Source of the DNA: Hydrurus foetidus
Lineage: Eukaryota
NCBI GenBank assembly: GCA_900617105.1
Contig: UYFQ01000001.1
Span: 3,782,001 to 3,846,000 of the forward strand
Direction: 5' to 3'
DNA length: 64,000 nucleotides
Shown here piece by piece: positions 1,301-37,808 of the stretch (the first letter of the stretch is position 1; every line of letters begins with the position of its first letter). A model generated the notes under the pieces. It was not told the DNA's origin and ran no database searches. It was given only the letters and a program-made list of their open reading frames with translations. The position numbers and the translations under genes were made by a program.

Positions 1301-1355
1301 TAAACAAGCTGTAGCCCAATTTATACGGGCGCGAGCAGCTATATAATAAATAGCA
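1301..1355 (+). repeat. Dispersed ~55-bp element, copy 1 (intergenic)
   Basis: taaacaagctgtagcccaatttatacgggcgcgagcagctatataataaatagca; aligns by eye with 10 other copies. Confidence 0.9.
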
Positions 1356-1452
1356 TACTGCCGTGCCTGCAAATGCGCCCATCGCCTACACGCTGCCCTC
1401 AACGCCCAGTCAATAATTCGGTTTTGTTTTTATTGACCTCAGGAGAAAACCC

Positions 1453-3905: not shown

Positions 3906-4176
3906 GTTGAACTCCTGGTTGGAATAAGGCAAATAAACGTACGGCTCTGGCCGCTACTGGTTTACGTGACTTTTTTCTGACTGGATTCAATCTAATTTTT
4001 AAAAACCGTTTTAAGCAGCGCTTTTTTAAAAGACGGGCAAAAGCCTGACGCGTCGGCAAGGCGTGGTCTGAGTTTTTGGCCGATGGGGCTCGCCGCTTTG
4101 CCGAGCTATCAACGAATCAGTGGTTGACTTCAGCTTATGCTGCCGCGGCATGCTGAAACCTTGCCAAATATCAATA

Positions 4177-4231
4177 GAATAGGGCTGCAGCCCAATAAAA
4201 TCAGGCGCAGTAAGCTATAAAAATAAGAGTA
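4177..4231 (+). repeat. Dispersed ~55-bp element, copy 2 (intergenic)
   Basis: gaatagggctgcagcccaataaaatcaggcgcagtaagctataaaaataagagta. Confidence 0.85.
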
Positions 4232-4347
4232 ATTTATAGCGCTGAAAGCGCTTGTCCTACGGCTAAACAAGGCCGTCTCCTACGCGCTCTTTGTGTTACC
4301 TTCAAATTTGGACATTTTTCCGGGTTTTCACTGCATTGTGAGACTTC

Positions 4348-15175: not shown

Positions 15176-16843
15176 TCAAGCGCTCTGAATCCGCTCCACA
15201 TGCGCCAGCAAAGACCGCTTGGCCACGGGCCAGATGCGCTCATCTACATCGTCATAAGCCAGCGGCACCCAGTCGTCCAGCGTGCCGTTTGGCATGGCTT
15301 GCATCACGGTCATGATTTTGGCTTCGCGTTTCAAGCGGTGCGCTTTGAGCTGGGCAATGGCTGTTTTGGCCTGGCCGATAACGTAGCCGTGAGCGGGCAG
15401 GATGAAGTCGATGTTGTGTTCATCGCAGGCCGCGCTCAATACATCGAGTGAATCCAGGTAGGCGTTCATGTTGCCGTCGGGCGGGTTGATCACCGTGGTG
15501 CTGCCGTTGAGTATGTGGTCGCCGCTGAACAGCAGGCCGTCTTCCAGCAGCACCAGGCAAAGGTGATTGGCGGCATGGCCGGGCGTGTAAATTACCTTCA
15601 AAGTATGGCTATTTTGGTCATTTTTACAAGTTAAATTGGCCTCTGGCCCAATTGATACGGGCGCGAGCAGCTCATTATTTAATAGCAATTTATCAGGCGT
15701 GAAGACGCTGTCTGCGCGGGAGGTGGCGGCTGATGGCAGGCCCGCGATATGGGGCGTTGGTTTGCCCGCTTCTGTGCAAAGCGCTTGCAGCGGCCTGGCA
15801 CCCGGCGAATGATCGGGGTGCGAATGGGTGCAGATGATCAGGCGAATATCGCCACCTGCCGCGTCATACAACCGCTGCAAGTGGTCAACATCAGCTGGGC
15901 CAGGGTCAATCACTGTAAAACCCGACGCTGCATCGCCCACCACGTAACTGTTCGTACCCGGCCCGGTCATCACGCCGGGGTTGGGCGCAGTCAGGCGCAT
16001 GACGTTTTTAAGCAGCTTGACGGGCGCATCAGTTTGCCAGTCAAGCGTATGCACAATTTGCCCGTCCGGACTTAGCAGCTCCAGCTCGCCATAGGGCGGC
16101 TCATGCTCCATGTAGCGGGCTTCTTTGCCGGCTAAAAAGCCCGCGCGTGGGCAAGATGTCCACAGTGGTTGTTCGCTCGCGCAGGCCTGTAAAACGGAAT
16201 CGACTGTGGCGTAGTGTTGCAACCGCTCCAGCGTGCGAATGGTCGGAAAAATGATGAAAAATTTGCCCGCTGCATGCCGCGCCAGCGCATCAGCAGGGCG
16301 TATCCATTCGGGCTCAAACTGCTCGGCTTCGTCAGCCACCGGCTCTTGGCCTTCTGGCATGCGGGCAACTAAAAAAGGCACGTCAAAACGGCGCGGCAAA
16401 TCGCGGTCAGTCACCCAATGGGCCAGCACAAACACGTCGGCGCCCGCCAGGGTTAAACCGCGGGCCCGGCACTGTGCAGCAAAGGGCGCTTTACGGTCGA
16501 GCGCAGCGATGTCGGCTGTATTCACATGACTGCCATCTGCATGCTTGGCCAGCAGCACGCCTAGTTCTTCAAAACTCTCGCGAATGGCGGCGATTGCCTG
16601 CGTCAGGTGTAAATCAGTTTGGCTTGCGCGGCGGGTTGATTGCCCATGCGCAGCAGCATCAAGCGCATCAATACCGCCGCCCGGAAAAACATAAGCGCCA
16701 GGGGCAAAACTGGCCGTCATGGATCGGCGCGTCATCAGCACTTCGATGCCTTGATGGGTGTCGCGCAGAAGCAAAACCGTCGCCGCATTTCGAAGCAATG
16801 CGGGTTCACGCTGAGGCGTTAAAAGCTGATTTTGTCTTACCAT
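15176..16843 (-). CDS. Nudix hydrolase-metallo-beta-lactamase fusion protein
   Basis: VFPGG...AAIRESFEELG (Nudix); THSHPDH, TPGH, SGDH and PAHG (MBL). Confidence 0.9.
   Translation of the reverse strand: MVRQNQLLTPQREPALLRNAATVLLLRDTHQGIEVLMTRRSMTASFAPGAYVFPGGGIDALDAAAHGQSTRRASQTDLHLTQAIAAIRESFEELGVLLAKHADGSHVNTADIAALDRKAPFAAQCRARGLTLAGADVFVLAHWVTDRDLPRRFDVPFLVARMPEGQEPVADEAEQFEPEWIRPADALARHAAGKFFIIFPTIRTLERLQHYATVDSVLQACASEQPLWTSCPRAGFLAGKEARYMEHEPPYGELELLSPDGQIVHTLDWQTDAPVKLLKNVMRLTAPNPGVMTGPGTNSYVVGDAASGFTVIDPGPADVDHLQRLYDAAGGDIRLIICTHSHPDHSPGARPLQALCTEAGKPTPHIAGLPSAATSRADSVFTPDKLLLNNELLAPVSIGPEANLTCKNDQNSHTLKVIYTPGHAANHLCLVLLEDGLLFSGDHILNGSTTVINPPDGNMNAYLDSLDVLSAACDEHNIDFILPAHGYVIGQAKTAIAQLKAHRLKREAKIMTVMQAMPNGTLDDWVPLAYDDVDERIWPVAKRSLLAHVERIQSA
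15632..15687 (+). repeat. Dispersed ~55-bp element, copy 3, inside the Nudix-MBL CDS
   Basis: taaattggcctctggcccaattgatacgggcgcgagcagctcattatttaatagca. Confidence 0.9.
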
Positions 16844-16869
16844 CAAAGCATTACAACACGGAGATTTCG

Positions 16870-17841
16870 ATGAACTCCAAGCGCAGTTTGGTTTTGGGTT
16901 TGCTGGCTAGTTTTGCTTGCGGGGCGATGGCTCAAACCACGCCTGCCTGGCCCGCACGCGGGCCCATCAAGCTGGTGGCAGTGTTCCCGCCGGGCGGCTC
17001 GGTTGACCAGGTGGCCCGCATTTTGGCGGTACCCCTACAAGCTGCGTTGGGCCAAACCGTGATTGTTGAAAACAAGGGCGGTGCGTCCGGCTCCATTGGG
17101 GCCGCGGCTGTTGCTGCCAGCCCGGCAGACGGCTACACGTTTGCAGTGGTGTTCGACACGCACGGCGTGAACCCGGCGCTGATTCTCAACCTGCCATTCG
17201 ACAGCAAAAAAGACCTAGCCCCCGTGGTTTTGGTCGGCACATCACCGATGGTGCTGGCAACTTTTTCGGGCAGTGACTACAAAACCTTTGCCGACGTGGT
17301 GGCAGCCGCCAAAGCCAAAAAACCCGTCAGTTACGGCAGCATTGGCTCCGGCAGCCTGGGCCATGTGGCGATGACGCTTCTCGGCAAGAATGGCGGCATT
17401 GAATGGGCGCACATTCCGTACAAAGGCGGCGGCCCGCTGATGAACGACGCCGTTGCAGGCCACGTGCCATTGTCAATTGGCTCGGTGTTTGTGACCAAGC
17501 CGCATATCGACAGCGGCCGCCTGCGCCCCTTGTTTGTGACCAGCACCAAGCGCAGCCCTGATTTGCCGAACGTGCCAACCGTAGCGGAAAGCGGCTACCC
17601 CGGTTTTGAAGCGCCCGCCTGGTGGGCCGTGCTAGCACCAGCCAAAACGCCGCCTGACATTTTGAAGCGCATGAACGAAGCGCTGAACAGCGCGTTGAAA
17701 AACCCGGAAATTTCTAAAAAGCTTGACGCCCAAGGCATTGACGTAGTCGGCGGCAGCGCAGAGGTTGCTAGAGTGTTCATGGACAAGCAAACGGACATTT
17801 GGGCCAAGGTGGTTAAAGACAACGGGATCAAGGCGGATTGA
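16870..17841 (+). CDS. Bug/TctC substrate-binding protein
   Basis: FPPGGSVD, YGSIGSGS and HIPYKGGGP; ATG after GGAG. Confidence 0.93.
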   Translation: MNSKRSLVLGLLASFACGAMAQTTPAWPARGPIKLVAVFPPGGSVDQVARILAVPLQAALGQTVIVENKGGASGSIGAAAVAASPADGYTFAVVFDTHGVNPALILNLPFDSKKDLAPVVLVGTSPMVLATFSGSDYKTFADVVAAAKAKKPVSYGSIGSGSLGHVAMTLLGKNGGIEWAHIPYKGGGPLMNDAVAGHVPLSIGSVFVTKPHIDSGRLRPLFVTSTKRSPDLPNVPTVAESGYPGFEAPAWWAVLAPAKTPPDILKRMNEALNSALKNPEISKKLDAQGIDVVGGSAEVARVFMDKQTDIWAKVVKDNGIKAD

Positions 17842-17860
17842 TCGCTCGATGGAGCCGCCG

Positions 17861-17888
17861 AAAAAAGGGGCCTGCAGGTCCCTTTTTT
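17861..17888. terminator. Bidirectional intrinsic terminator
   Basis: AAAAAAGGGGCC-TGCA-GGTCCCTTTTTT. Confidence 0.8.
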
Positions 17889-18137
17889 GTTTCAACGCGG
17901 GATTGGGGAGCACTCGTGGTGAGTGATTTTCTTGCTGTTGGATAAAGAGCGAGAGAATGCGGCTCTGTCAGGCTGCTACCGACGACAAAGCGGAATTTCA
18001 GGAGTTTAAGTCGACTGCCCTAAAGCCGAGATTGACTTGAAGTTGTAGTACCGTAGTTCGCCAGCGCACAAATTAGCTGCCTTAATTCTGCACCCGTCGG
18101 ATTTCACGGCTCGATTTGGGGGGATGTTGACCGCAAT

Positions 18138-18884
18138 TCAATCGAACTGAAGTCCGCCGTTGAGGTCAAGCACCTCCCCTGTAATAAAACCGCTCAATGG
18201 GTGCGCAAGAAAGAGCACACAATGCGCGAACTCTTCCAATTCGCAGAAGCGGCCAACTGGAATCATCCGGAGCAGTTCGACTTGACGTTCCGCACTCATT
18301 TGTTCAGTCACCATTTGTGTCTTGACAAACGCAGGAGCCAACGCGTTGCACGTCACGCCAAACGCTGCGTATTCACGGGCAAAGCTGAATGTCAGAGAAA
18401 TAACGCCACCCTTGCTGGCGGCATAGGCTGGCAGAGGCGACATTCCGCCAGTCTTGGCGCCAAAAGACGCGACATTGACAATGCGACCGAAGCCGCGGGT
18501 TTTCATCCCACCCACGACACGTTGCGTCACAAAAAAGACGCCATCCAGATTGATGCGCATGGTTTTGTGCCATAACTCAGGGGTCGTCTCCTCGCAATTG
18601 GCGTAGCTCAAGAACCCGGCATTGTTGACGCACACATCAATACGTCCAAATTCGGCCTCAATGGCCGTGCATGCGGTATCGATCTGTACCCGGTCGCTCA
18701 CGTCCATGATGAAGCAAGCCAAACGATCACCATAAGCCGCCATCTGCTGAGCGACCTGTGCTGTTTGCAAGTCGGTCGCCGCAACTCGATAGCCAGCTTC
18801 GAGAAGTGCCTGCACGGTGGCCAGCCCCATGCCTGAGTTGGCACCCGTTACGAGGGCGACCTGGTCTTTAATTTGGGGTTTCAT
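18138..18884 (-). CDS. SDR-family oxidoreductase (FabG-like)
   Basis: TGANSGMG, NNAG and YAASK. Confidence 0.92.
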   Translation of the reverse strand: MKPQIKDQVALVTGANSGMGLATVQALLEAGYRVAATDLQTAQVAQQMAAYGDRLACFIMDVSDRVQIDTACTAIEAEFGRIDVCVNNAGFLSYANCEETTPELWHKTMRINLDGVFFVTQRVVGGMKTRGFGRIVNVASFGAKTGGMSPLPAYAASKGGVISLTFSFAREYAAFGVTCNALAPAFVKTQMVTEQMSAERQVELLRMIPVGRFCELEEFAHCVLFLAHPLSGFITGEVLDLNGGLQFD

Positions 18885-18905
18885 TGTTTTTGTCTGGTGT
18901 AACTT

Positions 18906-19763
18906 TTATGCTGCTTCGACACAGCGTTGTAATTGTTGTCCCAGCCCTTCAATGCCAACGCGCATGATTTGGCCAGCTCTTAAAAAGACTGGTGGCCGCA
19001 GACCCAGACCAACGCCAGGCGGCGTGCCCGTGGATATCATGTCGCCCGATTGAAGGCTCATGAATTGGCTCAAATAATGCACCAGGAAACGTATATTGAA
19101 GATCATCGTGGACGTGCTGCCGTCTTGATACCGCTTGCCGTCAACCTCCAGCCATAGGCTCAGTGACTGTGCGTCGGGTACCTCGTCCGATGTGACAAGC
19201 CAGGGGCCAATCGGACCGAAGGTGTCACAACCCTTGCCTTTGTCCCAAGTCCCACCGCGTTCATTTTGATACGCACGCTCAGAGATATCGTTGATCACAC
19301 AATAGCCGGCAACATGTTCCATCGCATCCGCTTCTGCGATGTAACGGCCTCCCTGTCCAATGACGACACCTAACTCAACCTCCCAATCGGTTTTCAATGA
19401 GCCGCGGGGAATTTCAACATCATCGTCAGGGCCGTTGATCGCACTGGTCCATTTGTTGAAGACAATAGGCTCCGCTGGTATGGCTTGTCCCGTCTCTGCC
19501 GCATGGTCGGCATAGTTCAGACCAATGCAGACAAATTTTCCGATATTGCCGATGCACGCCCCGAGACGCAAATCTACTTGTGGAGTCCCGTGGACCAGAG
19601 GCAGGCTCGCAATGTCGATCCGGCGCAGTTTCTCCAGTCCTGCAGGGATTAGCACGTCACCGGAAATATCGGAAACATGGGCGGAGAGGTCGCGAACTTG
19701 CCCATTGTTGTCCAGCAAACCGGGTTTTTCCCGGCCTTTAGATCCATAGCGCAGTAATTTCAT
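18906..19763 (-). CDS. Fumarylacetoacetate-hydrolase-family protein
   Basis: CIGLNYADH, DWEVEL, NDISER, GKGCDTFGP and TGTPPGVG. Confidence 0.93.
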   Translation of the reverse strand: MKLLRYGSKGREKPGLLDNNGQVRDLSAHVSDISGDVLIPAGLEKLRRIDIASLPLVHGTPQVDLRLGACIGNIGKFVCIGLNYADHAAETGQAIPAEPIVFNKWTSAINGPDDDVEIPRGSLKTDWEVELGVVIGQGGRYIAEADAMEHVAGYCVINDISERAYQNERGGTWDKGKGCDTFGPIGPWLVTSDEVPDAQSLSLWLEVDGKRYQDGSTSTMIFNIRFLVHYLSQFMSLQSGDMISTGTPPGVGLGLRPPVFLRAGQIMRVGIEGLGQQLQRCVEAA

Positions 19764-19778
19764 GGGGAGTCTTTTCGA

Positions 19779-20558
19779 TTAGATGGTGATACCACCGTCC
19801 ACGCATATTGCTTGGCCGGTGATAAAACGTGATTCGTCGGAGGCAAGATAAACCACGAGTGGGGCGATTTCCTCGGCGCTTGCCAGTCGGCCCATGGGTT
19901 GACGTTCAATAAAAGCTTTTTCTGCCTGGACAGGGTCTTCGGTGGCTGCGATACGGCCACGCAGGGACGGTGTGTCGACGGTGCCAGGGCAGATGGCATT
20001 GCAGCGCAGGCCGTGGGTGATGAAGTCTGCGGCAATGGATTTGGTAAGCCCGATGACGGCCGCTTTGGTAGCGCCATAGGCGCAGCGGTTCGGGAAGCCT
20101 TTGATGGATGAAGCCGCAGACGCCATGTTGATGATTGATGCCGAGTGCGTCCTGGACCGCTCGAGCATGGCCGGCAGAAATACGCGGATCATGTGAAACA
20201 TGGAAGTGACATTGAGCGCGAAGGCGCGATCCCAATCGTGCGGATCGACGGTCAAAATGCTGCCGTTATGCACGACACCCGCACAGTTGAACAGCGCATC
20301 CAATGGTTTCGTGCGAAGAGCCAATTCGCGTATGGCGTCGGTGTTGCACACATCCAGATGCTCGCAGCGGATTTGGTCCGCCAGACCTTGTTCACGGGCC
20401 AGCGCTTCCAGGTCCTTGAGCGCGTCGTGGTTGATATCGGTAGCAATGACCTGGGCACCAGCACGTGCGCAGGCCAGTGCAGTGGCGCGACCAATGCCTT
20501 GGGCCGCAGCGGAAATGAGGACGGCTTTGCCCTGCAGGCGTAAAAGTGAAGAAGTCAA
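19779..20558 (-). CDS. SDR-family dehydrogenase (BDH2 / 2-keto-3-deoxy-sugar-acid dehydrogenase-like)
   Basis: SAAAQGIG, LFNCAG, YGATKAAVIGLTK and ICPGTVDTPSL; TTG start uncertain. Confidence 0.88.
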   Translation of the reverse strand: MTSSLLRLQGKAVLISAAAQGIGRATALACARAGAQVIATDINHDALKDLEALAREQGLADQIRCEHLDVCNTDAIRELALRTKPLDALFNCAGVVHNGSILTVDPHDWDRAFALNVTSMFHMIRVFLPAMLERSRTHSASIINMASAASSIKGFPNRCAYGATKAAVIGLTKSIAADFITHGLRCNAICPGTVDTPSLRGRIAATEDPVQAEKAFIERQPMGRLASAEEIAPLVVYLASDESRFITGQAICVDGGITI

Positions 20559-20611
20559 AACCAGCTCCCCGGATCAGTTCGTTAAAGATTGGATGGGTTC
20601 GCAATCCAGGA

Positions 20612-21826
20612 CTAAGCGCTTGCAGTGACGGTACTAGCGCTTTTTTGCGCCTCGATCCAATCGAATGTCCGCATCACGCCGCGCAATTCTGCCAAGCCCT
20701 TTAGCCGCCCGATACAGGAGTAACCGGGGTTGATACGGTTTTTGTTCAGGTCATCCAGCAGCAGGTGCCCATGGTCTGGGCGCATCGGTATGTCTGCATC
20801 TGTTTGGCCAGCATCGCGGCGACGCTGCTCTTCAACCAGCAATGCGCGCACCACGGCAATGAGATCGGTGTCACCGCCCAGGTGGTCTGCCTCATAAAAG
20901 GAGCCGTCTGCCTCGTGCGTCACGTTGCGCAGATGGGTAAAGTAAATGCGCGCTGCAAATTCTTCTGCCATGGCCGGCAAATTGTTGTCTGGGCGCGAGC
21001 CGTATGAACCACAACACAGTGTTAAACCGTTCGCTGGACTCGGAATGGCCGCCAACAGGCGCCGCGCATCATCTGCAGTCGAGATGATGCGTGGCAATCC
21101 GAACAGAGAAAAGGGTGGGTCGTCCGGGTGAATGGCAAGCTGCATGCCAAATTCTTCTGCAACCGGCACGACTTCCCGCAGAAAATCAAACAGGTTTTCG
21201 CGCAGTTGGTCTGCACCCATATCGGCGAACTCGCTCAACGCAACACGCATCTCGGCACGGGTGAACCACGCCTCACGCGCGGGCAACCCGCCGATGATGT
21301 TGTTTTCCAGCCGGACGAGCCGGTCTCCGACCAATACCGGGAGCCGCTCCCGGGCTGCGGCCAAAGCGGCTTCGGAGTAATTTTCAGCCGCGCCAGGTCG
21401 TTCGAGGATGTAAACATCGTAGGCAACGAATTCAGGAAAGTCGAAGCGCAAGGCCTGGCCTTGGTGCGGGAGTTGCCAATGCAGGTCGGTGCGCGTCCAG
21501 TCGACGACGGGCATGAAGTTGTAGCAGACGGTCTTGATGCCTGCGCGCCCCAAATTTGCAAGGCTGTCTTTCCATGCGGAGATGTATTTCCGGTACGGTC
21601 CACTGCGAAGCTTGACAGAGTTGTGCATCGGGATGGACTCGCAAACATTCCATTGCAGTCCCGCCGCACTGATCTTGTCGCGGTGGTCCTCAATGTCTTT
21701 GAGATCCCAGCGGCGGCCATCATACATATCGTGCAGAGCGCTAACGATGGCTTGAGCACCGGCTTGCCTTGCGTCCAGCAGGCTAACCGGGTCTGTGTCG
21801 CCAAACCATCTCCAAGATTCGATCAT
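20612..21826 (-). CDS. uxuA: Mannonate dehydratase
   Basis: WRWFG, CYNFMPVVDWTRT, IHPDDPP, RPDHGH and PGYSCIGRLKGLAE. Confidence 0.95.
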   Translation of the reverse strand: MIESWRWFGDTDPVSLLDARQAGAQAIVSALHDMYDGRRWDLKDIEDHRDKISAAGLQWNVCESIPMHNSVKLRSGPYRKYISAWKDSLANLGRAGIKTVCYNFMPVVDWTRTDLHWQLPHQGQALRFDFPEFVAYDVYILERPGAAENYSEAALAAARERLPVLVGDRLVRLENNIIGGLPAREAWFTRAEMRVALSEFADMGADQLRENLFDFLREVVPVAEEFGMQLAIHPDDPPFSLFGLPRIISTADDARRLLAAIPSPANGLTLCCGSYGSRPDNNLPAMAEEFAARIYFTHLRNVTHEADGSFYEADHLGGDTDLIAVVRALLVEEQRRRDAGQTDADIPMRPDHGHLLLDDLNKNRINPGYSCIGRLKGLAELRGVMRTFDWIEAQKSASTVTASA

Positions 21827-21870
21827 TTACATACTCCTTAGTAATTTTTTTGAGCCCGATTAGTCAGGTC

Positions 21871-22692
21871 TCAACCGTTCCAGCCAAGATGGCCGAGAAA
21901 ATCGCGTGTGCGGGCAACCGTGGGGTGGTCAAAAATCTGTGCCGGTGGGCCTTCTTCCATGATGGCGCCGTTTTCGAACACCACCACCCAGTTGGCCACC
22001 CGCTGGGCGAAACTCATTTCGTGCGTGACCACGATCATGGTCATGCCTTCCTGCGCCAGCTTTTTCATGACGTTGAGAACTTCGCCCACGGTTTCGGGGT
22101 CCAGCGCCGAAGTCGGCTCGTCAAACAGCATGACCTCCGGCTCCATTGCGAGGGCGCGGGCAATTGCTACGCGTTGCTGCTGGCCGCCTGAAAGATACGC
22201 CGGAAAGCTTTCGGCCTTGGACACCAGGCCGACCTTGTCGAGCAGCGCCAGCGCGCGGGTCCGGGCCTCCTTGACGCTCATACCCAAGACCGTAATTGGC
22301 CCCATGGCGACATTGTCTAGTGCGGTCTTGTGCGGGAACAGCTCGAAGCTCTGGAACACCATGCCCATGCGCTGGCGTACCTTGCGGATGTCTGTCTCGC
22401 GCGTGGGCAGCGGCACGCCGTCGAGCAGCACGCGGCCGCCGTTGAGTGTCTCCAGCACATTGGTGCAGCGCAGCAGCGTGGACTTGCCCGAACCCGACGG
22501 GCCGATCAGGCACATCACCTCGCCTTTGTTGACCTGCAGCGAGACATTGTTGAGCGCGACAAAGTCGCCGTAGAGCTTGCGCACGTTTTCATACAACAGC
22601 ACCGGGGGCTGGTCAGCGCCCTTGCGCGGCAACAGCGCGCCCGTATTTGCAGCAGCACTCGTGGCAGTACCTGCTTCGATCAATGGGTTCAT
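21871..22692 (-). CDS. Polar amino acid ABC transporter ATP-binding protein (GlnQ/HisP type)
   Basis: [23 protein letters not shown] and [11 protein letters not shown]. Confidence 0.95.
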
Positions 22693-23348
22693 TCCTTGAC
22701 TCCGTATTTCTTGTGGATCCAGTCCACCAGTTTGGCCTGCGGGTAGCCCATCAGCCAGTACAGCGCGGCCATGGCTGTCAGCATTTCCAGCACGCGAAAG
22801 GTCTGTGCGCGAATCTGCATCGAGGTATAGGCCAGCTCGCTCACGGCTATTACCGACACCAGCGAAGTGTCCTTGAAGAGTGAAATCCAGGTGCTGGCCA
22901 GCACCGGCAAAATGCGCCGTGCTGCCTGCGGAATGACCACCTTGAACATGGCCTGCCTGCGCGACATGCCCATGGCCAGTGCGGCTTCCATCTGGCCCTT
23001 GCGTATTGAGTTGATGCCGGCGCGAAAAGTCTCGGCGTTGTAAGCCGAGATATTGAGAACCAGCGCCACCAGCGCGGTGGTGAGAGCCGAGAACTGCACA
23101 TCAAAGGCCATCGGCATCACATAAAACGCCCAGTAAATCACCAGGATCAGCGGCAGGTTGCGGAAGAACTCCACAAAGGCCAGCGAAGCGGAGCTGATCG
23201 CCTTGTTGGAAGACAAGCGCATCAGCGCTAGAACGATACCGCCGGGCACCGCCAGCAGCATGGTCGCCACCGTCAGCCCGATGGTCATTGCCGCGCCTTC
23301 AAGCAGGGCCTGCCGATGCGTCCAGATGACGTTCCAGTCGAAGTTCAT
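22689..23348 (-). CDS. Polar amino acid ABC transporter permease
   Basis: [20 protein letters not shown] and KDTSL. Confidence 0.93.
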
Positions 23349-24010
23349 GAGCGCCCCAGGTGGGCAAGTCGTTGATAGAGGCGGTCGACCACGCGTGTCA
23401 CCGGGAACAGCACCACGAAATAAAGCACCATGACCGCTGTGAATACTTCAACCGGCCGGTAGCTTTGTCCGGCCACGGTTTCCGCACGGTGCATCAGCTC
23501 GGGCACCGCGATCACGGTGGCTATCGCCGTGTCCTTGATGGCCATGGTGAGCACCGAGCCAAAGGCTGGCAGCATGCGGATGGTGGCCTGCGGCAGGATG
23601 ATCTTGCGCAGGATTTGCGCACGCGACATGCCCAGCGCCAACCCGGCACGGGTCTGGCCCGGACGAATGGACTCGATGCCGGCGCGGATGATCTCGGACG
23701 CATAGGCGGCAATGTGCAGCGTCAGCCCCACCAGTGCGGCCCAGAAGGGCGGAAAAGTGACGCCAGCCAGGATGGGAAAGGCAAAGTAAATCCACACCAG
23801 CACCACCAAAATTGGAATGGCGCGCATGGTATCGACATAAAAGATCAGCAAGGTACTGAGCCAGTGCGGACCATACAGCCGCAGCAAAGCAATGACCAGC
23901 CCAAGCAGGATGCTGGTCACCGCGCTGATGACGCTGAGCAGCACAGTCACGCCTAGCCCGCCGGCAAAAAAGCGCCAGTTAGCAATGATCGGTGAAAAAT
24001 CCACGTCCAT
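23345..24010 (-). CDS. Polar amino acid ABC transporter permease
   Basis: MRAIP, AYASEIIR and KDTAI. Confidence 0.93.
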   Translation of the reverse strand: MDVDFSPIIANWRFFAGGLGVTVLLSVISAVTSILLGLVIALLRLYGPHWLSTLLIFYVDTMRAIPILVVLVWIYFAFPILAGVTFPPFWAALVGLTLHIAAYASEIIRAGIESIRPGQTRAGLALGMSRAQILRKIILPQATIRMLPAFGSVLTMAIKDTAIATVIAVPELMHRAETVAGQSYRPVEVFTAVMVLYFVVLFPVTRVVDRLYQRLAHLGRS

Positions 24011-24061
24011 GGGGCATCCGTCAAATGTTGGGGAAAGCGGCCGTTGTTGCTAACCGCACAC

Positions 24062-24121
24062 CTCGCCTGCGCCAGAACGCCTTGTGCCTGTTCTGGCAGG
24101 CACGGGGCGTGCGCAGGTGAG
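24062..24121 (-). other. Long intercistronic stem-loop between the SBP and permease genes
   Basis: ctcgcctgcgc...cgccttgtgcctg/caggcacggggcg...gcgcaggtgag nested pairing, no T-tract; typical position for an mRNA-stabilising hairpin. Confidence 0.55.
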
Positions 24122-24134
24122 CAGTGGCTGTTGC

Positions 24135-24983
24135 TTACTTGAGCGTCAGCGTCATTCGCAATTCTTCGGCTGCCAATGCGGGCTGCATGCGTTTTTCTAC
24201 TTCACGCAGCCAGTCGAGGTAGATCTGCTCGTTCTTGTTGACGCCCATACCGGCCTTGACCTGAAAGATCTTGCTGTCCTGGCAATCGTTTTCTTTCGGG
24301 AAAACGGCCAGGCCCTTGACCTTCTTGTTGATGTTGGGCCACAGCACGCGGTTCAGCGGTGCAACGTCAGAGCGGCCAGCAAGCACTTCCTCAATCGGCG
24401 CGACCGAGCCGGAATTGCTCACGCCGCGCAGCTTGGCTTTGGGGAACTGCTCGCGCACAAACGGTTCCTCGCCGCCGCCCGAGAAGTAAGCCATAGTGAT
24501 CTCGGCCTTGTTGAAATCCTCCAGCGTTTTGGCTGTAGTGAACTTTGGGTTGTCAGCGCGGCCAAACATGCACACGCCAGTGCTGGAGAAGGTCACGAAG
24601 TCAATGATTTTGGCGCGCTCGGCATTCTGGCCCAGCGGGCCGATCATGATGTCCATCTGGTTGGCAATCAGCGCAGGTATCTTGGTTTCATGGCTGACGG
24701 GAACCGGCACCATCTGCACGCCCAGCAGCTTGGCGAATTCCTTGCCCAAAAGCCATGACGGCCCAGCCCAAGTCTCGCCTTCGCCGGTGGTGTTTTGCGC
24801 CAGCCAAGGCGGGTTGTTGACCACGCCGACGCGCAACGTGCCGGCCTTGCGGATGGCATCAATACGCGGGCTGGCACCGGCGGGCGGCGGGGTTTGTGCC
24901 CATGTGCTGCCGATGCTGGCAGTCATGACGGCTGCCAGGGCAAACGCCTTGGCGCAGCGGTTGAGTGAAATTGAAGTGCTCAT
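24135..24983 (-). CDS. ABC substrate-binding protein, family 3 (amino-acid type)
   Basis: Signal peptide, GTLRVGV and ERAKIIDF. Confidence 0.88.
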   Translation of the reverse strand: MSTSISLNRCAKAFALAAVMTASIGSTWAQTPPPAGASPRIDAIRKAGTLRVGVVNNPPWLAQNTTGEGETWAGPSWLLGKEFAKLLGVQMVPVPVSHETKIPALIANQMDIMIGPLGQNAERAKIIDFVTFSSTGVCMFGRADNPKFTTAKTLEDFNKAEITMAYFSGGGEEPFVREQFPKAKLRGVSNSGSVAPIEEVLAGRSDVAPLNRVLWPNINKKVKGLAVFPKENDCQDSKIFQVKAGMGVNKNEQIYLDWLREVEKRMQPALAAEELRMTLTLK

Positions 24984-25058
24984 GATGTGTCTCGTCTTTC
25001 TTGGTTGTCTCGTTGGGGCTCTGAATCGATTTGAATAGGCGGTAAAAATCCGCTGGGC

Positions 25059-25922
25059 TCAGTTCATGGTTTTGATGATGCGTGTCTCCTCTGTGTCCAG
25101 CTTGACCGCCATGGCTTTTCCCACTTGGCGCAGCCAGTCCAGGTAAACCTGCTGGTTCTTGTCGACTGCCAGGCCCACAGGCGACGCTTTCTCCAGGCTG
25201 TTCTGGCAGTTGTTGTCCCGTGGGAACACCGTCAGTCCTTTAACCTTTTGGTTGAGGCCAACCCAGGGAATCCGGTTAATCGGTGCGACGTCGGCACGTT
25301 TGGCCATGATTTCTTCAACCGGTGCGGGGGCGCCCGAACTGCCCACTGCACGGAGTTTTGCTTTGGGAAAACGCTCTTTCACCCAGTTTTCTTCTGCCCC
25401 GCCAGTGAAGTAAGCGATGGTGATGTCGGGGCTGTTCAAATCGTCCACTGACTTGAGCTTGGCCAGCTTCTCATTGCCCGAGCGTCCGAACATGCAGACA
25501 CTGGTCGTCGAATAGATCACAAAGTCCACCACCTTGAGCCGCTCGGGCGTCTCGGCCAGCGCGCTGATGGTCATGTCAACCTGGTTGGCGGCCAGCACCG
25601 GCACCTTTGTTTCGTGCGACACCGACACGGGCGTTAGTTTGACGTTCAGCAGGCGCGCATATTCCGTGGCCAGAAGCCAGACCGGGCCACCCCAAGACGG
25701 CCCGTTTCCGGTGGTGTTTTCGACCAGCCAGGGGGCGTTTTGCAGCACGCCGACACGCAGTTCACCAGATTTCTTGACGGCGTCAACGCGTGGGCTGGTA
25801 CCGGGTGGCGGAGGTGTCTGCGCCAGTAGCGCACTGCTGGAAACCCCGAACAACAGGCCGACCAGCCAGGGGCTGAGTTGTCGGGAAAGGCTGGACTGCA
25901 TGGGCATGTTTGTCTCTTTCAA
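25059..25922 (-). CDS. Second family-3 ABC substrate-binding protein (paralogue)
   Basis: GELRVGV and TPERLKVVDF; shares VSHETK and CMFGR with the neighbour; start may be 25907 or later. Confidence 0.88.
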   Translation of the reverse strand: MKETNMPMQSSLSRQLSPWLVGLLFGVSSSALLAQTPPPPGTSPRVDAVKKSGELRVGVLQNAPWLVENTTGNGPSWGGPVWLLATEYARLLNVKLTPVSVSHETKVPVLAANQVDMTISALAETPERLKVVDFVIYSTTSVCMFGRSGNEKLAKLKSVDDLNSPDITIAYFTGGAEENWVKERFPKAKLRAVGSSGAPAPVEEIMAKRADVAPINRIPWVGLNQKVKGLTVFPRDNNCQNSLEKASPVGLAVDKNQQVYLDWLRQVGKAMAVKLDTEETRIIKTMN

Positions 25923-26010
25923 TGTTGTTGGGGTGAACCGTACGGGGTGGCGGGCGGCGAATGATGACTTGCTCTCATGCGAACATGACAGGCAATGTTT
26001 AAAACTATAT

Positions 26011-26192
26011 TTGGTTTACCAAAAAATGAAATTATGGTTTACCACTATTTCATTTGGTTTGTCCAATTTGCATAATTATTGGTCAGGTGATCCGATTGCG
26101 ATCTGTATTAGCAGGTGTTTAAGCAATTTTTAAAGGCTCTCAACGGCGTTCTGAGTCTGGCGATCATTTGTTCGGCTTAAGTGGTTAGACCA
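26011..26192. promoter_or_regulatory. Cluster of FadR/UxuR-type operators in the divergent promoter region
   Basis: TTGGTTTACCAA 26011, TGGTTTACCA 26035, TTGGTTTGTCCAA 26054, TGGTTAGACCA 26182. Confidence 0.75.
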
Positions 26193-26293
26193 AAATTGCA
26201 TTTTTAACAGTAACGACCAGAATTGAAGACGCATGAAACCAGCAAAAACTTTCTAAGATCAAACGCAGCAATTCAACCCCCGGTGCCACTCAT

Positions 26294-27058
26294 ATGCCTT
26301 CCTTAGCCATGCCTCTCAATACTGACCACGACACCGTGACTGCATCGCCCCCTGCCCGGCTCATGGCGGACGAGGGTGTTGCGGGGGCGGAACGGTCGTA
26401 CCAACGCCTGGCAGAGCAGATCGTGGCCATGGTGGCATCGGGGGAGTTCAAGGTTGGCGACCGCCTGCCTTCGGAGCGCAATCTGGCCGAACGGTTTGAG
26501 GTCAGCCGCACGTCTCTGCGCGAGGCCGTGATTGCGCTGGAGGTGCAAGGCCTGGTGGAAGTGCGTCTGGGCTCAGGCATTTATGTGTGCAGTGCGCCGC
26601 AGCCCAAGCCGTCATATATGCCGATGAACGAGCCCGGGCCTTTTGAGCTGCTGCGCGCGCGCTGGCTGCTGGAGGGCGAGCTGGCCGCGCAAGCCGCCAT
26701 CAACCGCAGTGATACTGACATCGACCGCATCTACGCCGCGATGGCTGCCATGAAAGACAACTTCAATGAAATGCGGGCCAATGAAGAAGCCGATCGCATG
26801 TTCCACCTGCACATTGCGCAGGCGGCTGGCAACGGGGTGTTGACCCATGTGGTGAGTACCCTGTGGAAGCAGCTTCGCGGGCCGATTTGGACGCGGCTTG
26901 AAGATCACTTTGTTACCACTGAGCTGCGTCAGGCCTCGCTGAACGAGCACCACCAGATATTCACCGCCATCGTGAGCCGGGACGCCGAAGGCGCGCGCCA
27001 ATCCATGCGTGCCCACATTGAGCGAGTCAAGAGCGAGTTTATGAAAGCCTGGTCGTGA
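26294..27058 (+). CDS. GntR/FadR-family regulator (UxuR/ExuR-like)
   Basis: GDRLPSERNLAERFEVSRTSLREA wHTH and FCD domain (DRMFH...N...H); start uncertain. Confidence 0.92.
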   Translation: MPSLAMPLNTDHDTVTASPPARLMADEGVAGAERSYQRLAEQIVAMVASGEFKVGDRLPSERNLAERFEVSRTSLREAVIALEVQGLVEVRLGSGIYVCSAPQPKPSYMPMNEPGPFELLRARWLLEGELAAQAAINRSDTDIDRIYAAMAAMKDNFNEMRANEEADRMFHLHIAQAAGNGVLTHVVSTLWKQLRGPIWTRLEDHFVTTELRQASLNEHHQIFTAIVSRDAEGARQSMRAHIERVKSEFMKAWS

Positions 27059-27122
27059 GCTATACGCCGCGCATCCGGTCAATACCATTGCAGCATAGAA
27101 CCATTACAAGAAACGAAACCGC

Positions 27123-28601
27123 ATGGAAACCGAGTCCTCTGCCTTGCGCTCGCTGTCGCGTCACAGTTTGCCCACCATACGCCCTGACATAGCCATGCTG
27201 GGCTATGACCGCTCGGCGCTGGTTTGCGGCATCGTGCACTTGGGGCTGGGCGCATTTCACAGGGCGCATCAGGCTTTGTATACCGAGCGCCTGTTGGCAG
27301 CCGGGGACAGGCGCTGGGGCATTCTGGGTGTCAGCCTGCGCGACCCCCGTGTGGTCAACAGCCTGGCGGCGCAGGACTATTTGTATTCGGTGACCGAGAA
27401 GCACGGCCATGCCGCGCAAACCCAGGTGGTGGGCTCCTTATGCGGCGCTCTGTTTGCACCCAAGGCACTGAATCAGGTGCTGGCAGCCATTGCCAACCCG
27501 CAGACCAGCGTGGTGTCCAGCACAGTCACCGAAAAGGGCTACAGCCAGAACCCGGCCACCGCTGACCTTGATCTGAGTGACCCGGGTATTCAACATGATC
27601 TGCAATACCCCGACGCACCGATGACCACGCTTGGCATCTTGGCGGCTGGCATTCGCCGCCGCCCGGCCCATGCGCCGCTGACGCTGCTGTGCTGCGACAA
27701 CATGGCCGGTAATGGGGATGTACTTCGCAAACTGCTGGTGCAGTATGCCGGGCATCTGGATGCGGGTCTGGCCCGCAGGCTCGAGTTGGACATCGGCATG
27801 CCCAACAGCATGGTCGACAGGATTGTTCCAGCGGCAACGCCTGCGTCATTGGACATGGCCTCGGCGGCCCTGGGTTTGCGGGACGAGGCTGCCGTGGTTT
27901 GCGAACCCTTCATCCAGTGGGTGATTGAAAACCGCTTCAGCGGACCACGCCCTAACTGGGAAGATGTGGGCGTCACGCTAACCAGCGATGTCCGCCCCTA
28001 CCAGGAAATGAAACTGCGTTTACTCAACGGCACCCACTCGGCCATCGCCTATGCCGGCCAGCTATGCGACCTGCCCACGGTGTCCGATGTTATGGCGGAT
28101 CGCGAGGTTGGCGGCTTTGTACGCCGCCTGATGCTCGAAGACCTGCGCTTTTCGATGAACTGCCCGCCCAACTTCGACCTGGACAGCTACTGCCAAGACC
28201 TGCTGCGGCGTTTTGAAAACCCGACACTTGCCCACAAGACAGAGCAGATTGCCCTAGATGGTTCGCAAAAAATCCCGGTGCGTTGGCTGCCTGCATTGCG
28301 TGAAAGCCTCGCGCTCGGCAAAGAGTTACCGCTACTGGAACGTGCGCTGGCCGTCTGGTTGTTTTACCTGGAACGCCAAACCAGTGAGACCGGAAAAACT
28401 CTGATGTTCAAGGATGCAGGCTGCCAAGAACTGGTGACCCAGTTGCGCTTGGCCGCCAGCAGCCGCGACTTGGTGCATGCCGCACTGGCGCAGCACAGCA
28501 TTTTTAGCAAAGCCGACTGGCCCCAGGCTTTTGTAGATCGGCTGACTGAGCACATCAACACCTTGCGCAGCGCCGGGACTTACGCCCTGTTGAGCGCATA
28601 G
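27123..28601 (+). CDS. Mannitol-dehydrogenase-family oxidoreductase (UxuB-like)
   Basis: HLGLGAFHRAHQA, TVTEKGY, CDN, MVDRIVP, KLRLLNGTH and DGSQKIP. Confidence 0.9.
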   Translation: METESSALRSLSRHSLPTIRPDIAMLGYDRSALVCGIVHLGLGAFHRAHQALYTERLLAAGDRRWGILGVSLRDPRVVNSLAAQDYLYSVTEKHGHAAQTQVVGSLCGALFAPKALNQVLAAIANPQTSVVSSTVTEKGYSQNPATADLDLSDPGIQHDLQYPDAPMTTLGILAAGIRRRPAHAPLTLLCCDNMAGNGDVLRKLLVQYAGHLDAGLARRLELDIGMPNSMVDRIVPAATPASLDMASAALGLRDEAAVVCEPFIQWVIENRFSGPRPNWEDVGVTLTSDVRPYQEMKLRLLNGTHSAIAYAGQLCDLPTVSDVMADREVGGFVRRLMLEDLRFSMNCPPNFDLDSYCQDLLRRFENPTLAHKTEQIALDGSQKIPVRWLPALRESLALGKELPLLERALAVWLFYLERQTSETGKTLMFKDAGCQELVTQLRLAASSRDLVHAALAQHSIFSKADWPQAFVDRLTEHINTLRSAGTYALLSA

Positions 28602-28646
28602 CACTTTTCACCTCTCGTGCCTCCATACACAACCTTAGTGACAAAC

Positions 28647-29100
28647 TGAATCGCCCTGTAGTTGAACAGACCTCCAGAAGTTAGAAGGTCGTGATCCAAC
28701 CAGTCAGGCGTTGTTTTTCAGCCTGTATGGCACCGGCTGCGCCCTCGCAATTTGAGCTTGATGCGCTCGTAGTTGTAATAGTAGATGTAATTGTGAACGC
28801 CAGCCTTGAGCTCCTCAAGGCTGTCAAGCGTTGCAAAATGGAAGTACTCGGCCACGAGGGTGCCGAAAAAGCTCTCGATCACCGCGTTGTCAAAGCTGTT
28901 GCCCGTGCGGCTCGTGCTTTGCCTGCCTCCGCGCCGCGCAAGTATCGCTCTGTAGGGCTGCATCTTGCACTGCCAGCCCTGATCGGAGTTCTCGATCAGT
29001 TCTGCGTTGCACTGGGACCGAGAAAGCGCTGCCCGAAGCGTGCCAAAGACGATTTTGAAGACCGAGCACTAGGCCATACGTTGAGCAAAGATCTCACCTG
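28647..29100 (-). mobile_element. Degenerate IS3-family remnant (3' part of OrfB plus putative terminal repeat)
   Basis: Reads ...RMA*...NSDQGWQ...SRTGNSFDNAVIESFFGTL...YYNYERIKLKL with an in-frame stop; end begins TGAATCGCCC. Confidence 0.8.
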
Positions 29101-29325
29101 TGTGGAGTTCCACACAACTGCGCTGTGCACGCTTAGTCAGCCAGTATCGGCAGGCTGCTTCCAAGCTACACGGCAGGCAAAACCTAGGTTCCCGCTAGCT
29201 GCCGTTCACGAGAGTCAGCAGATGGCCCAGAGCAGTCACAAATGGCACGTAATTTCCCCAGTAGCTCCAGCAAATTGACCGCTTTAGGGTTCCACGTTTT
29301 GAGACATTCCTAGCTTCCTCTTTTA

Positions 29326-29652
29326 CTAAGCCTCCGGCGTCACCCCCCGCGCCACCAAAAACCGCGCCACCATGTTGTAGGTTGCAATCGCTGCCGTCAA
29401 CTCAACAATTTTCGTGGCGTCGAAGTGTTGTTTGAGCTGCGCGAATACCTCGTCGGCCACCTTCACGTCCAGTGTCATTTGCGCTGCGTATTGAACCACT
29501 ATGCTTTCAATAGCTGCTAGCGCCTTATTTTGTTGGGCCACAGCCGTGTTTGCCTTGTAAATGAGGCAAACTTGCTGCAATGCATCTAGCTCAGTCTGTG
29601 TGCCGCCTGCTTTTAAAAAATCTGGCGCGTGGTGGTGGTGTTCGTACGCCGC
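29326..29652 (-). pseudogene. 5'-truncated duplicate of the CMD-family gene 3' end
   Basis: Manual alignment with 31192-31513: about 33 mismatches in 322 nt, no gaps; no 5' half. Confidence 0.9.
29497..29552 (-). repeat. Dispersed ~55-bp element, copy 4, in the CMD fragment
   Basis: caaacacggctgtggcccaacaaaataaggcgctagcagctattgaaagcatagtg on minus strand. Confidence 0.85.
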
Positions 29653-29899
29653 GTCGATTGGCGGGGATTCTTTCTGATTACTGCAACATGTTTCAAAACA
29701 AGTGAAGCTTTAAGAATACGCTTCATAACATCCTGTACCGCCTGCGAGCTTGGCGACGAGGGCACTTATGTACCGGGTAGTCGGGCAGAGACTGCAAAAG
29801 GGGTTGATCAACTGGCCGATAGACATCAAGTCAGGGCCGTTAACAACATCTGAATGCAAGCGAAGTGATATTTCTAGCAGTTTTGATGTGTATTTAACC

Positions 29900-29932
29900 A
29901 TGTTATTCTTCCAAAGCATGGAATAATAACAT
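29900..29932. promoter_or_regulatory. 14-bp inverted repeat directly upstream of the ATPase start
   Basis: ATGTTATTCTTCCA-AAGCA-TGGAATAATAACAT, one mismatch. Confidence 0.6.
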
Positions 29933-29934
29933 TG

Positions 29935-31164: not shown

Positions 31165-31174
31165 GTGCCCCGAC

Positions 31175-31741
31175 TCAGATTCCAGGTCGTGCTTCCGGCG
31201 ACACCCCCAACGCCACCAAAAACCGCGCCACCATGTTGTACGTGGCAATCGCCGCCGTCAGCTCCACAATTTGCGTGGTGTCAAAGTGTTGTTTGAGCTG
31301 CGCGAACACCTCGTCACTGACTTTAACGTCCAGCGTCATTTGCGCTGCGTATTGAACCACTATGCTTTCAATAGCTGCTAGCGCCTTATTTGATTGGGCC
31401 ACAGTCGTATTTGACTTGTAAATGAGGCAAACTTGCTGCAATGCATCCAGCTCGGCCTGTGTGCCGCCTGCTTTTAAAAAATCTGGCGCATGGTGGTGGT
31501 ATTCATAGGCGGCTCCGGTCAGTAGCGCCACAGTGCAGATGCCGAGTTCGCGCAGTTTCCAGCTGGTCGGCAGGTCGGTGCGCACGGCTTTTAAATACAC
31601 GTTCCAGCCGCGCGCCAGTGGTTCGCTCCACAGTAGCGCTTTGTCGAGGTTGATGAACTCGCCGCCCCGGCGTTTCAAAATGGCTTGTACCAAGTCATCG
31701 GGTTGAGGTTTAAGTGCAGGGGTCCAGTCAGGGATGCGCAT
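31175..31741 (-). CDS. Carboxymuconolactone decarboxylase/AhpD-family protein
   Basis: LRELGICTVA...YEYHHH and IVELTAAIATYNMVARFL. Confidence 0.85.
   Translation of the reverse strand: MRIPDWTPALKPQPDDLVQAILKRRGGEFINLDKALLWSEPLARGWNVYLKAVRTDLPTSWKLRELGICTVALLTGAAYEYHHHAPDFLKAGGTQAELDALQQVCLIYKSNTTVAQSNKALAAIESIVVQYAAQMTLDVKVSDEVFAQLKQHFDTTQIVELTAAIATYNMVARFLVALGVSPEARPGI
31358..31413 (-). repeat. Dispersed ~55-bp element, copy 5, inside the CMD CDS
   Basis: caaatacgactgtggcccaatcaaataaggcgctagcagctattgaaagcatagtg. Confidence 0.85.
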
Positions 31742-31788
31742 GCAGTGCTCACTTTCAAAAAAACATAGGGTAGCGCGATAATCTGGCC

Positions 31789-32703
31789 ATGATGCAACTG
31801 AAGCGGGTCAAATTCACCAAAATGCAGGGCGCGGGCAATGACTTTGTTGTGCTGGACGAGACGCGCGGCTTGCTGGGCTTGAATGCTGCGCAGTACCGGT
31901 TTTTAGCCGACCGGCATTTTGGCGTGGGGGCCGATCAGATTTTGTCGGTTCGGCCCGCGCCTTCGCCTGCGGTGGACTTTGAGTACGTGATTCACAACGC
32001 CGATGGCGGTGAGGTAGAACACTGCGGCAACGGTGCGCGCTGCTTTGTACGATTTGCGCGTGAGCGCGGTTTGACCGACAAGGCGACTCTGAAAGTACAA
32101 ACCATGAACCGCGTGCTCACGCTCGCGATGCAAAGCGACGGCCGGGTCACGGTTGACATGGGCGCGCCGGTGTTTGACTTGGCCCGCATTCCGTTTGATG
32201 CGACTGGATTGACGCCTGAAAACGCCAATTCATGGCAAAAATGGCCGTTAAATATGGCTGCAGCCCAATTAATACAGGCGCAAGCAGCTCCTGTATTGGT
32301 AGCAGTTAGTGTGGCCGTCCTGTCCATGGGCAACCCGCATGCGGTGCAGGTAGTAAGCGACGTGGACGCAGCGCCGGTGCTGCAGTTGGGCCCGCTGATC
32401 GAAAGCCACGCGCGCTTTGCCAAACGGGTTAACGCCGGGTTCATGCAAATCGTCAGCCGCAGTGACATCAAACTTAGGGTGTACGAGCGCGGCGCGGGTG
32501 AGACGCTGGCCTGCGGCACGGGCGCGTGCGCGGCGGTGGTGGCGGGCATTCGCCTGGGCCTGCTCGATGGGAAAGTCAACGTGCAAACACATGGCGGGCC
32601 GCTCACTATTGAATGGTCTGGCGCGCTGGACGCGCCTGTGATGATGACCGGGCCAGCCACGACGGTTTTTGAGTCTGAAATCGACATCCCCGATACGGTC
32701 TGA
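31789..32703 (+). CDS. dapF: Diaminopimelate epimerase
   Basis: [24 protein letters not shown] and [16 protein letters not shown]. Confidence 0.98.
32249..32304 (+). repeat. Dispersed ~55-bp element, copy 6, inside dapF
   Basis: taaatatggctgcagcccaattaatacaggcgcaagcagctcctgtattggtagca. Confidence 0.9.
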
Positions 32704-37632: not shown

Positions 37633-37688
37633 TAAATAGACTTCTAGCCCAATAAATACAGGCGCAAAGAGCTATGAATATGATAGTG
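37633..37688 (+). repeat. Dispersed ~55-bp element, copy 8 (intergenic)
   Basis: taaatagacttctagcccaataaatacaggcgcaaagagctatgaatatgatagtg. Confidence 0.88.
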
Positions 37689-37808
37689 ATTATTCCTTGG
37701 CAAAGTACGTTGTTTAATGAGATGCGGCTCGCTTTGCCCTTGTCTTACGACGCTTTCGCCCCATATCGGCGCTAACCGATAAACTAGATTTACCTTCTCA
37801 GGATTTTT

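Follow-up and report, generated by a model that had tools for sequence, protein, structure and literature searches.

Similar peptides encoded within unrelated genes of a 64,000-nucleotide stretch of DNA (hereafter the window), spanning positions 3,782,001 to 3,846,000 of contig UYFQ01000001.1 in an assembly deposited under Hydrurus foetidus (GCA_900617105.1), are a by-product of a genome-wide DNA motif that lies in fixed register over pre-existing codons. An earlier note on this DNA had attributed them to a mobile element like the Rickettsia palindromic elements (RPEs), which insert in frame into genes. Overall, the feature is real but its mechanism is probably not the one proposed, being instead a DNA signal that is built in place, read by a protein and recodes the proteins beneath it. 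Named records bearing the motif belong to Polaromonas, Rhodoferax, Acidovorax, Giesbergeria and Variovorax (best 80 of 120 records), and the DNA of the window is therefore very likely that of a member of the Comamonadaceae.

The element was first shown to be dispersed by a repeat search and by a profile drawn from seven copies. With 111 copies of G001, the closest relative genome compared (466 kb on 36 contigs that were picked for holding matches, so that density is biased), as the training set, a matrix detected one dispersed motif with 12 copies in the window, on both strands and scoring 16.5–92.7 bits; the training DNA includes orthologues of some of these sites. A Markov-3 control of 466 kb gave zero matches at ≥12 bits. 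Genome-wide figures below come from the G001 contigs and one 400-kb stretch of G110, a complete genome from another genus. Seven window copies lie in intact genes, encoding an LpxL-type acyltransferase, a Nudix and metallo-beta-lactamase protein (Nudix-MBL), a CMD-family protein, DapF, an RlmI-like protein, MurG, and MurC together with the likely ddl start, while another sits in a truncated CMD duplicate and four are intergenic. The peptides first reported were confirmed, namely LLLNNELLAPVSIG at residues 387–400 of Nudix-MBL (read antisense to the motif), NTTVAQSNKALAA at residues 111–123 of the CMD protein (read sense), a 13-residue peptide at residues 155–167 of DapF (read sense) and a 14-residue peptide at the C-terminus of MurC, although the MurC copy (55422–55478) falls outside the interval 15632..32304 assigned to the element in the earlier note. 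Copies in LpxL, RlmI and, weakly, MurG extend the coding set beyond the one it gave. Its statement that all frames stay open is accurate for the open reading frames (ORFs) of the host genes and inaccurate for the motif itself, whose six frames are open in 2–59% of the 111 G001 copies. That the similar peptides of unrelated proteins are dictated by a single DNA element is thus supported. An Rfam scan of the window matched RNase P alone and gave no match for the motif.

The motif was almost certainly built in place over existing codons rather than inserted. For each gene, 29–30 orthologues, the best-scoring matches from the genus, were aligned and each was scored with a family matrix. This comparison had been named beforehand as the test that could refute RPE-style in-frame insertion, and it did so: peptides of equal length that can be aligned occur in motif-less orthologues of RlmI, MBL and the MurC tail, and in those of the CMD protein bar three amino acids (aa). 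In the RlmI-like protein, the segment measures 42 aa in all 31 rows across scores from −47 to +67 bits, including 15/15 orthologues scoring below 10 bits, and the protein aligns to 3c0k without an insert there. In the CMD family, 21 motif-less orthologues have 38–39 aa, two motif-positive ones 39 aa and five motif-positive ones 42 aa, with the three extra residues sitting left of the motif core and orthologue scores graded from −54 to +67. Nudix-MBL orthologues fall into segment classes of 30, 32, 34 and 41 aa, of which the 30-, 34- and 41-aa classes contain the motif; the 34-aa class comprises eight motif-positive and five motif-negative orthologues, the 41-aa class comprises eight rows including the window, and the right half of the motif is in register with a native DRxLxDGExL-like stretch. 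The distance from murC to ddl is equal whether or not an orthologue has a clear motif, and the MurG tail measures 71–73 aa in nearly all orthologues displayed. As separate observations on these genes, the murC–ddl spacer of four relatives (L123, L124, L138, L144) holds a true insertion of 60–75 GC-rich bases, possibly a BRE, and the match to the RlmI-like gene is split near residue 170 by a gap of ~20–130 bases in G166, G175, G190, G191, G199 and G233, which suggests insertions at one recurring site.

Length differences were most pronounced in Nudix-MBL and DapF. Motif-positive DapF orthologues include 12 with a segment of 34 aa, four with 38 aa and four with 42 aa, compared with 32–34 aa in motif-negative ones, and the full motif is already present in the 12 that are 8 aa shorter; the additional 8 aa of the window protein correspond to two indels of 12 bases each, located in the left part of the motif and just past its right end. 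Between anchors, DapF spans 51 aa in the window, 43 aa in most close genera and 35–44 aa (71 in one case) in distant motif-less members, in which the WPL turn is already found. Alignment to DapF structures in the PDB, which we take from their codes to be Haemophilus- or Acinetobacter-type, leaves 18–19 gap residues, of which ~10 are present in motif-less family members, and comparison with those types alone would mislead. Relative to the 19 codons of the motif, gains amount to 0 aa in RlmI, +3 in CMD, +7 to +11 in Nudix-MBL and +8 to +10 in DapF, and those in DapF and Nudix-MBL lie beside or inside a motif already carried by shorter orthologues, with graded intermediates. The earlier note was therefore right that most relatives have shorter DapF and MBL segments (by 8 and by 7 to 11 aa, respectively). 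Recoding of proteins by the motif is real, because amino acid identity to motif-less orthologues falls to 20–55% inside it and stays at 83–85% outside (8 pairs). In predicted structures, the motif of DapF covers a strand, a hairpin and the next strand (predicted local distance difference test, pLDDT, 87.9 overall and ~54–77 in the loop), with the extra residues modelled as a low-confidence hairpin linking the two strands, whereas that of RlmI encodes the full helix 73–87 (pLDDT 61 overall and 85–90 over residues 61–80). As to the surface loops raised in the earlier note, these two models give a mixed picture, with a hairpin and its adjoining strands in DapF and a helix in RlmI. Among 15 of 93 joints listed from contigs of four sequencing runs, none removes just the motif, which is uninformative. 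In other motif-rich genera, the same DapF loop has been independently lengthened by 7–13 aa with motif-like sequence (dapF of G028, G056, G021, G151 and G076).

The motif comprises ~57 bases at fixed spacing, or ~100 bases with its arm, and a profile anchored on the right arm alone recovered 52 ungapped copies where 0–3 were expected. Conservation stops sharply near position 59 and fades leftwards, along an arm with A/T tracts at positions of about 47, 24, 4, −8, −19 and −28 and a periodogram peak at 10.5–11 bases. At the core is GCTMY-N7-RTAGC, a dyad of 17 bases with a variable, A/T-rich spacer, and the information content of the motif is 56–70 bits, a value inflated by the selection of matches. 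Among 111 and 87 copies (G001 and G110), mutual information revealed only local dependence between columns, each tract being either A-rich or T-rich, with no long-range linkage and no excess of Watson–Crick pairs or covariation on three dyads, for which invariant columns are uninformative either way. The copies show neither a fixed left end nor any terminal repeats or duplication of the target, the most similar pair of strong copies shares 79% identity, and nearest-neighbour identity was 0.692 versus 0.681 in block shuffles for one set and 0.634 versus 0.621 for the other. Because the arm is phased, dependence is local, compensatory pairing is absent and near-identical copies are lacking, we infer that the anatomy reflects shape readout on double-stranded DNA rather than an RNA or an element that was copied, and the motif probably serves as the binding site of a protein on wrapped double-stranded DNA. 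In addition, seven G110 loci between 2.10 and 2.42 Mb (L340–L356) hold motifs in inverted pairs. Within each pair the arms overlap with an offset of 9–10 bases, and the A/T tract at positions 2–5 is the centre of symmetry of a combined site of ~110 bases.

The motif is confined to part of the Comamonadaceae. In G001, 321 matches to the 27-base central pattern were found at ≤2 mismatches, whereas the reversed control and four other genomes each gave 0, and 48 of 151 Comamonadaceae genomes contained at least 80 core matches (maximum of 27 for the reversed control), counts in which many palindromic sites are included twice. Many close genera in the family nearly lack the motif. Among 196 genomes of 60 other families, at most 20 core matches occurred in each, and no other family of the order exceeded that value. 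A blastn search of plasmids with one 101-base copy gave no match, though such a search is insensitive for a degenerate motif. In phage contigs, 71 stretches matched the pattern, mostly one per contig, and no Mu-like central site was found in the seven of these contigs whose ORFs were listed. Variants are specific to genomes and are followed by the coding copies. For example, position 29 in the coding sites compared is G in the window (4/4), G181 (3/3) and G177 (4/4) and T in G155 (4/4) and G167 (4/4); in other sites it is G in 102/104 cases in G001, and T in 14/21 in G155 and 5/5 in G167.

Copies are evenly spaced, at a density of about one per 4–5 kb in many Comamonadaceae. In G110, 79 loci within 323 kb have a mean spacing of 4.1 kb (coefficient of variation 0.58, largest gap 10.2 kb), an evenness matched by 0/5000 draws under a uniform null and 0/5000 under an intergenic-only null. 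The following 77 kb contains no motif and, with genes for RepA, a relaxase, a coupling protein and ArsB and with lower GC content, is an integrative element. Similarly, no copy occurs in the sugar-acid cluster of the window between 15.7 and 29.5 kb, the flanking genes of which are only 1–4 kb apart in four close relatives; these are the two cases of motif-free acquired DNA considered. The cluster itself (17900–28600) is devoted to sugar-acid uptake and catabolism (UxuA, a mannitol-type dehydrogenase, an ABC transporter and GntR). Across 2.1–2.5 Mb of G110, 38 matches were on the plus strand and 49 on the minus strand. Copies wholly within genes, as called by a simple custom gene finder, numbered 29/111 in G001 and 24/87 in G110; in both genomes most of them use three of the six frames (26 of the 29 in G001). 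Spacers between convergent genes were the most often occupied in G001 (25/35, compared with 38/168 co-oriented and 8/49 divergent; P about 1e-8), and in G110 the motif was present in 14/35 convergent spacers versus 35/170 (P 0.03).

Our best single guess at the reader of the motif, by analogy with known uptake sequences and at a probability of roughly 45%, is the uptake machinery of natural transformation. A protein would read the 17-base dyad, the adjacent GC-rich block and the A/T tracts, and fragments with better sites would be taken up and recombined more often, so that improving substitutions and small in-frame indels would become fixed at any place where they are compatible with the encoded protein. 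With about one good site on each fragment the drive would reach saturation, and all sites would move together if the reader changed its preference. Several properties of known signals are comparable. In uptake signal sequences (USS), a core is flanked on one side by T-tracts in helical phase (PMC3458573), uptake sequences alter proteomes in a frame-biased manner and do not occur in genes that lack homologues (PMC2817400), and the spacing of DNA uptake sequences (DUS) fits the length of conversion fragments, with acquired genes lacking DUS (PMC2397512). The motif shares with DUS and USS a strong over-representation in hundreds of copies on both strands, a frame-biased overlay on coding sequence, a lack of copies in acquired DNA and variants between lineages, and with USS a core with one-sided, helically phased A/T tracts. 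In contrast to the 9-base core and two tracts of USS and the 12 bases of DUS, it has ~57 conserved bases and an arm reaching ~100, occurs once per 4–5 kb, mostly in intergenic DNA and singly instead of in terminator pairs, and goes along with small in-frame indels. Natural transformation, with hints of selectivity in uptake, is known from Acidovorax temperans, A. facilis and Verminephrobacter eiseniae; in V. eiseniae, excess foreign DNA cuts transformation at most ~10-fold, and the excerpts of that study name no signal sequence (PMC4212676). The motif is present in A. temperans and in a metagenome-assembled genome of A. facilis. A fuller version of the uptake proposal, held a little more tentatively still, is that the Comamonadaceae may possess a third, independently evolved uptake (self-recognition) signal that is several times longer than DUS or USS, occupies ~100 bases of wrapped DNA, is spaced every few kb in genome-specific dialects, recodes helices and strands of essential enzymes and lengthens loops by about one to three DNA helical turns.

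A number of observations weigh against uptake as the explanation. The motif is far longer and sparser than DUS or USS, just 26–28% of copies are wholly in genes, and the 16 kb of core genes at 37.7–53.9 kb of the window (a cobW-family gene, dksA and much of the cell-wall cluster) contain no copy above 10 bits. The distribution of scores is bimodal and intermediate sites are few across the genome, which is not obviously expected of drive by point mutation, and the small excess of nearest-neighbour identity over shuffles leaves slight room for some copying. The variant test relies on few sites and a weakly supported tree, with the RlmI position mixed in outgroups. The species-specific transformation of Acidovorax could be explained as a recombination barrier. 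ComEC is near universal (144/151 genomes), giving a single match in 46/48 motif-rich genomes and occurring also in most motif-poor ones, while of two motif-rich genomes, G064 gave no ComEC match and G007 has the gene in three pieces. A pilin of the ComP_DUS family was present in 5/5 motif-rich and 5/5 motif-poor genomes, and among ComEC, the ComP-like pilin, GyrA, HU/IHF and TnpA-Y1, no candidate reader discriminates between the two groups.

The main alternative, which we regard as rather unlikely, is a chromosome-architecture site, at which a cytoplasmic protein (gyrase, a nucleoid protein or a LysR-like tetramer) would wrap ~100 bases and one site per few kb would be selected. The 10.5–11-base period over ~100 bases matches wrapped DNA, the seven inverted pairs in G110 form symmetric sites of about that size, and the core has a T-N11-A geometry, which we take to be that of a LysR box. 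Enrichment in convergent spacers of both genomes would also fit, although such spacers are simply the least constrained DNA, and near-absence of the motif from many close genera fits an essential role badly. Strong gyrase sites such as the Mu strong gyrase site and BIME-2 share with the motif periodic bendability over ~100 bases, one dominant arm and abundance at 3' ends; E. coli gyrase sites have been analysed as 130-base windows, and the Mu site relies on one flexible arm (PMC6379681). However, the base specificity of the motif is much higher, there is no GyrA signature (no alignment column of the C-terminal domain splits five motif-rich from five motif-poor genomes), no central site occurs in the few phage contigs inspected, and sites are not enriched behind rRNA operons: five in total fell in the 4.8 kb following 10 operons, with none in 7/10 and none within 1.6 kb (same-genome controls were available for G110 only). 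Copy number of HU/IHF is likewise similar (2–4 versus 3–4). It is more improbable that a domesticated HUH (Y1) transposase nicks the right end of the motif and copies the arm between sites by one-sided gene conversion. Such conversion would account for the sharp right edge, the fading left edge, the concerted variants and the multi-base codon changes, and a single-copy gene for a TnpA-Y1 protein of 230–240 aa lies upstream of gltB in most of the family. This protein fits subclass 2.1/TIRYT in length, in its NHFH and YIDLNP motifs and in its GGGGWSAS-type repeats (PMC6006769, PMC3733652, PMC5581495), and scores 69.7–72.3 bits, under the NCBIfam RAYT cut-off of 80. The gene (L569:1462-2340 in G001; orthologues L622–L651) is followed by two direct repeats 48–50 bases apart. 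The left 13 bases of the motif core abut the first 3' repeat in 17/26 motif-rich versus 1/20 motif-poor genomes (Fisher P 4e-5, with kin not independent), in a pattern count that scores the mis-anchored G140 as a miss. However, the gene is present in 140/151 genomes, motif-rich or motif-poor, none of its residues or clades tracks the motif, and the adjoining partial motif, degenerate even in G001, is missing the conserved right end. Conservation is equally high at other old sites (dapF, murG), so the adjacency may be due to chance, and the columns show neither the hairpin covariation that HUH enzymes need nor long-range linkage. As in REP/RAYT and TIRYT systems, a single-copy Y1 transposase gene has an adjoining motif copy in many genomes, but the motif differs from those systems in the absence of a 5' GTAG foot and covarying hairpin and of dimers or clusters, in copies that are not near-identical and in a Y1 gene that is present regardless of it.

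Insertion of an RPE-like mobile palindrome into loops, as proposed in the earlier note, has very little probability left. Its dispersal in unrelated genes, in both orientations and with few preferred frames, is compatible with that origin, as are the longer DapF and Nudix-MBL of the clade to which the window belongs and the longer DapF loops of other motif-rich genera (50–56 versus 43 aa). Against it, no orthologue differs by the length of the element, RlmI shows zero length change where the motif encodes a helix, and the motif has no fixed left end, terminal repeats, target duplication, families of near-identical copies or Rfam match. RPEs are insertions of ~150 bases (PMC10969869), and, like intragenic repetitive extragenic palindromes, they share with the motif a repeat-derived peptide that is in frame and common to unrelated proteins, but the motif lacks the element-sized gain in length, the defined left end and the covarying hairpin, and recodes structured helices and strands. 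Membership of the RPE type was rejected on the empty site, covarying hairpin, defined ends and closely similar copies, and BRE is set apart by its description as a GC-rich repeat of 75–91 bases (PMC3110155). Fragments of the motif have been reported before, as Tong et al. 2017 (PMC5217627) describe two short spaced pairs as separate motifs without function and mention convergent spacers. The reverse complement of their Polaromonas pair, ATAGCT-N22-CAAAAG, corresponds to motif positions 10–15 and 38–43 (G167 and G181 copies), and their Acidovorax pair, GCTTAT-N5-AAGCG, lies centrally within an A. temperans copy; the excerpts of that paper do not describe the whole anatomy, the effect on proteins, the phasing or the spacing. 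In the literature covered, subscription journals excepted, neither the whole motif nor a Comamonadaceae uptake sequence is described beyond these two fragments.

Sequence-specific uptake signals have been described for two families, the Pasteurellaceae and Neisseriaceae (PMC7811141). If the uptake proposal is true, a third system would exist in abundant freshwater, soil and wastewater bacteria and would allow a direct test of molecular drive, for which transformable strains are already at hand (PMC4212676). If a cytoplasmic protein is the reader instead, the motif would represent a hitherto unknown, evenly spaced chromosome landmark. Either way, a signal at the level of DNA rewrites ~20 residues in DapF, MurC, MurG, RlmI and other proteins, and alignments of Comamonadaceae proteins therefore hold convergent segments unrelated to protein function.

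Table 1 Motif copies and host genes in the window, with positions counted from its first base.
Feature	Position	Strand	Score, domain or remark
Intergenic motif copy just 3' of tctC-family gene	1300..1356	+	87.1 bits
Intergenic motif copy between divergent genes	4176..4232	+	62.0 bits
Motif copy, antisense in lipid A acyltransferase gene	10656..10712	-	32.1 bits; PF03279
Host gene, Nudix + metallo-beta-lactamase + winged-helix protein	15176..16846	-	Pfam PF00293, PF00753, PF17778
Motif copy, antisense to Nudix-MBL (aa 387-405)	15632..15688	+	92.7 bits; phased arm reaches ~15590
Motif copy within truncated duplicate (29330-29653) of CMD gene 3' part	29496..29552	-	Repeat search, matrix scan
Host gene, CMD-family protein	31175..31741	-	PF02627
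Motif copy, sense in CMD-family gene (aa 110-129)	31357..31413	-	58.4 bits
Host gene, dapF (diaminopimelate epimerase)	31789..32703	+	PF01678
Motif copy, sense in dapF (aa 154-173; predicted strand end, hairpin, next strand)	32249..32305	+	83.7 bits; model
Motif copy, antisense in RlmI-like methyltransferase gene (predicted helix 73-87)	36633..36689	-	45.4 bits; model
Intergenic motif copy between RlmI-like and cobW-family genes	37633..37689	+	80.3 bits
Weak, old motif copy, antisense in murG 3' end	53926..53982	-	16.5 bits (G001 matrix), 35 (family matrix)
Motif copy spanning murC 3' end, stop codon and likely ddl start	55422..55478	-	55.0 bits
Intergenic motif copy ending right before ruvC start codon	61648..61704	-	81.9 bits

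The truncated duplicate of the CMD 3' part is ~90% identical to that part and carries its motif copy, and the neighbouring ORF (28691–29278) has no Pfam match. Elsewhere in the window, the class A RNase P RNA (14571–14953) carries a 31-base insert in an early loop, and it is preceded, at 14129–14548, by a PIN-domain gene with a short upstream ORF, a likely toxin-antitoxin pair.

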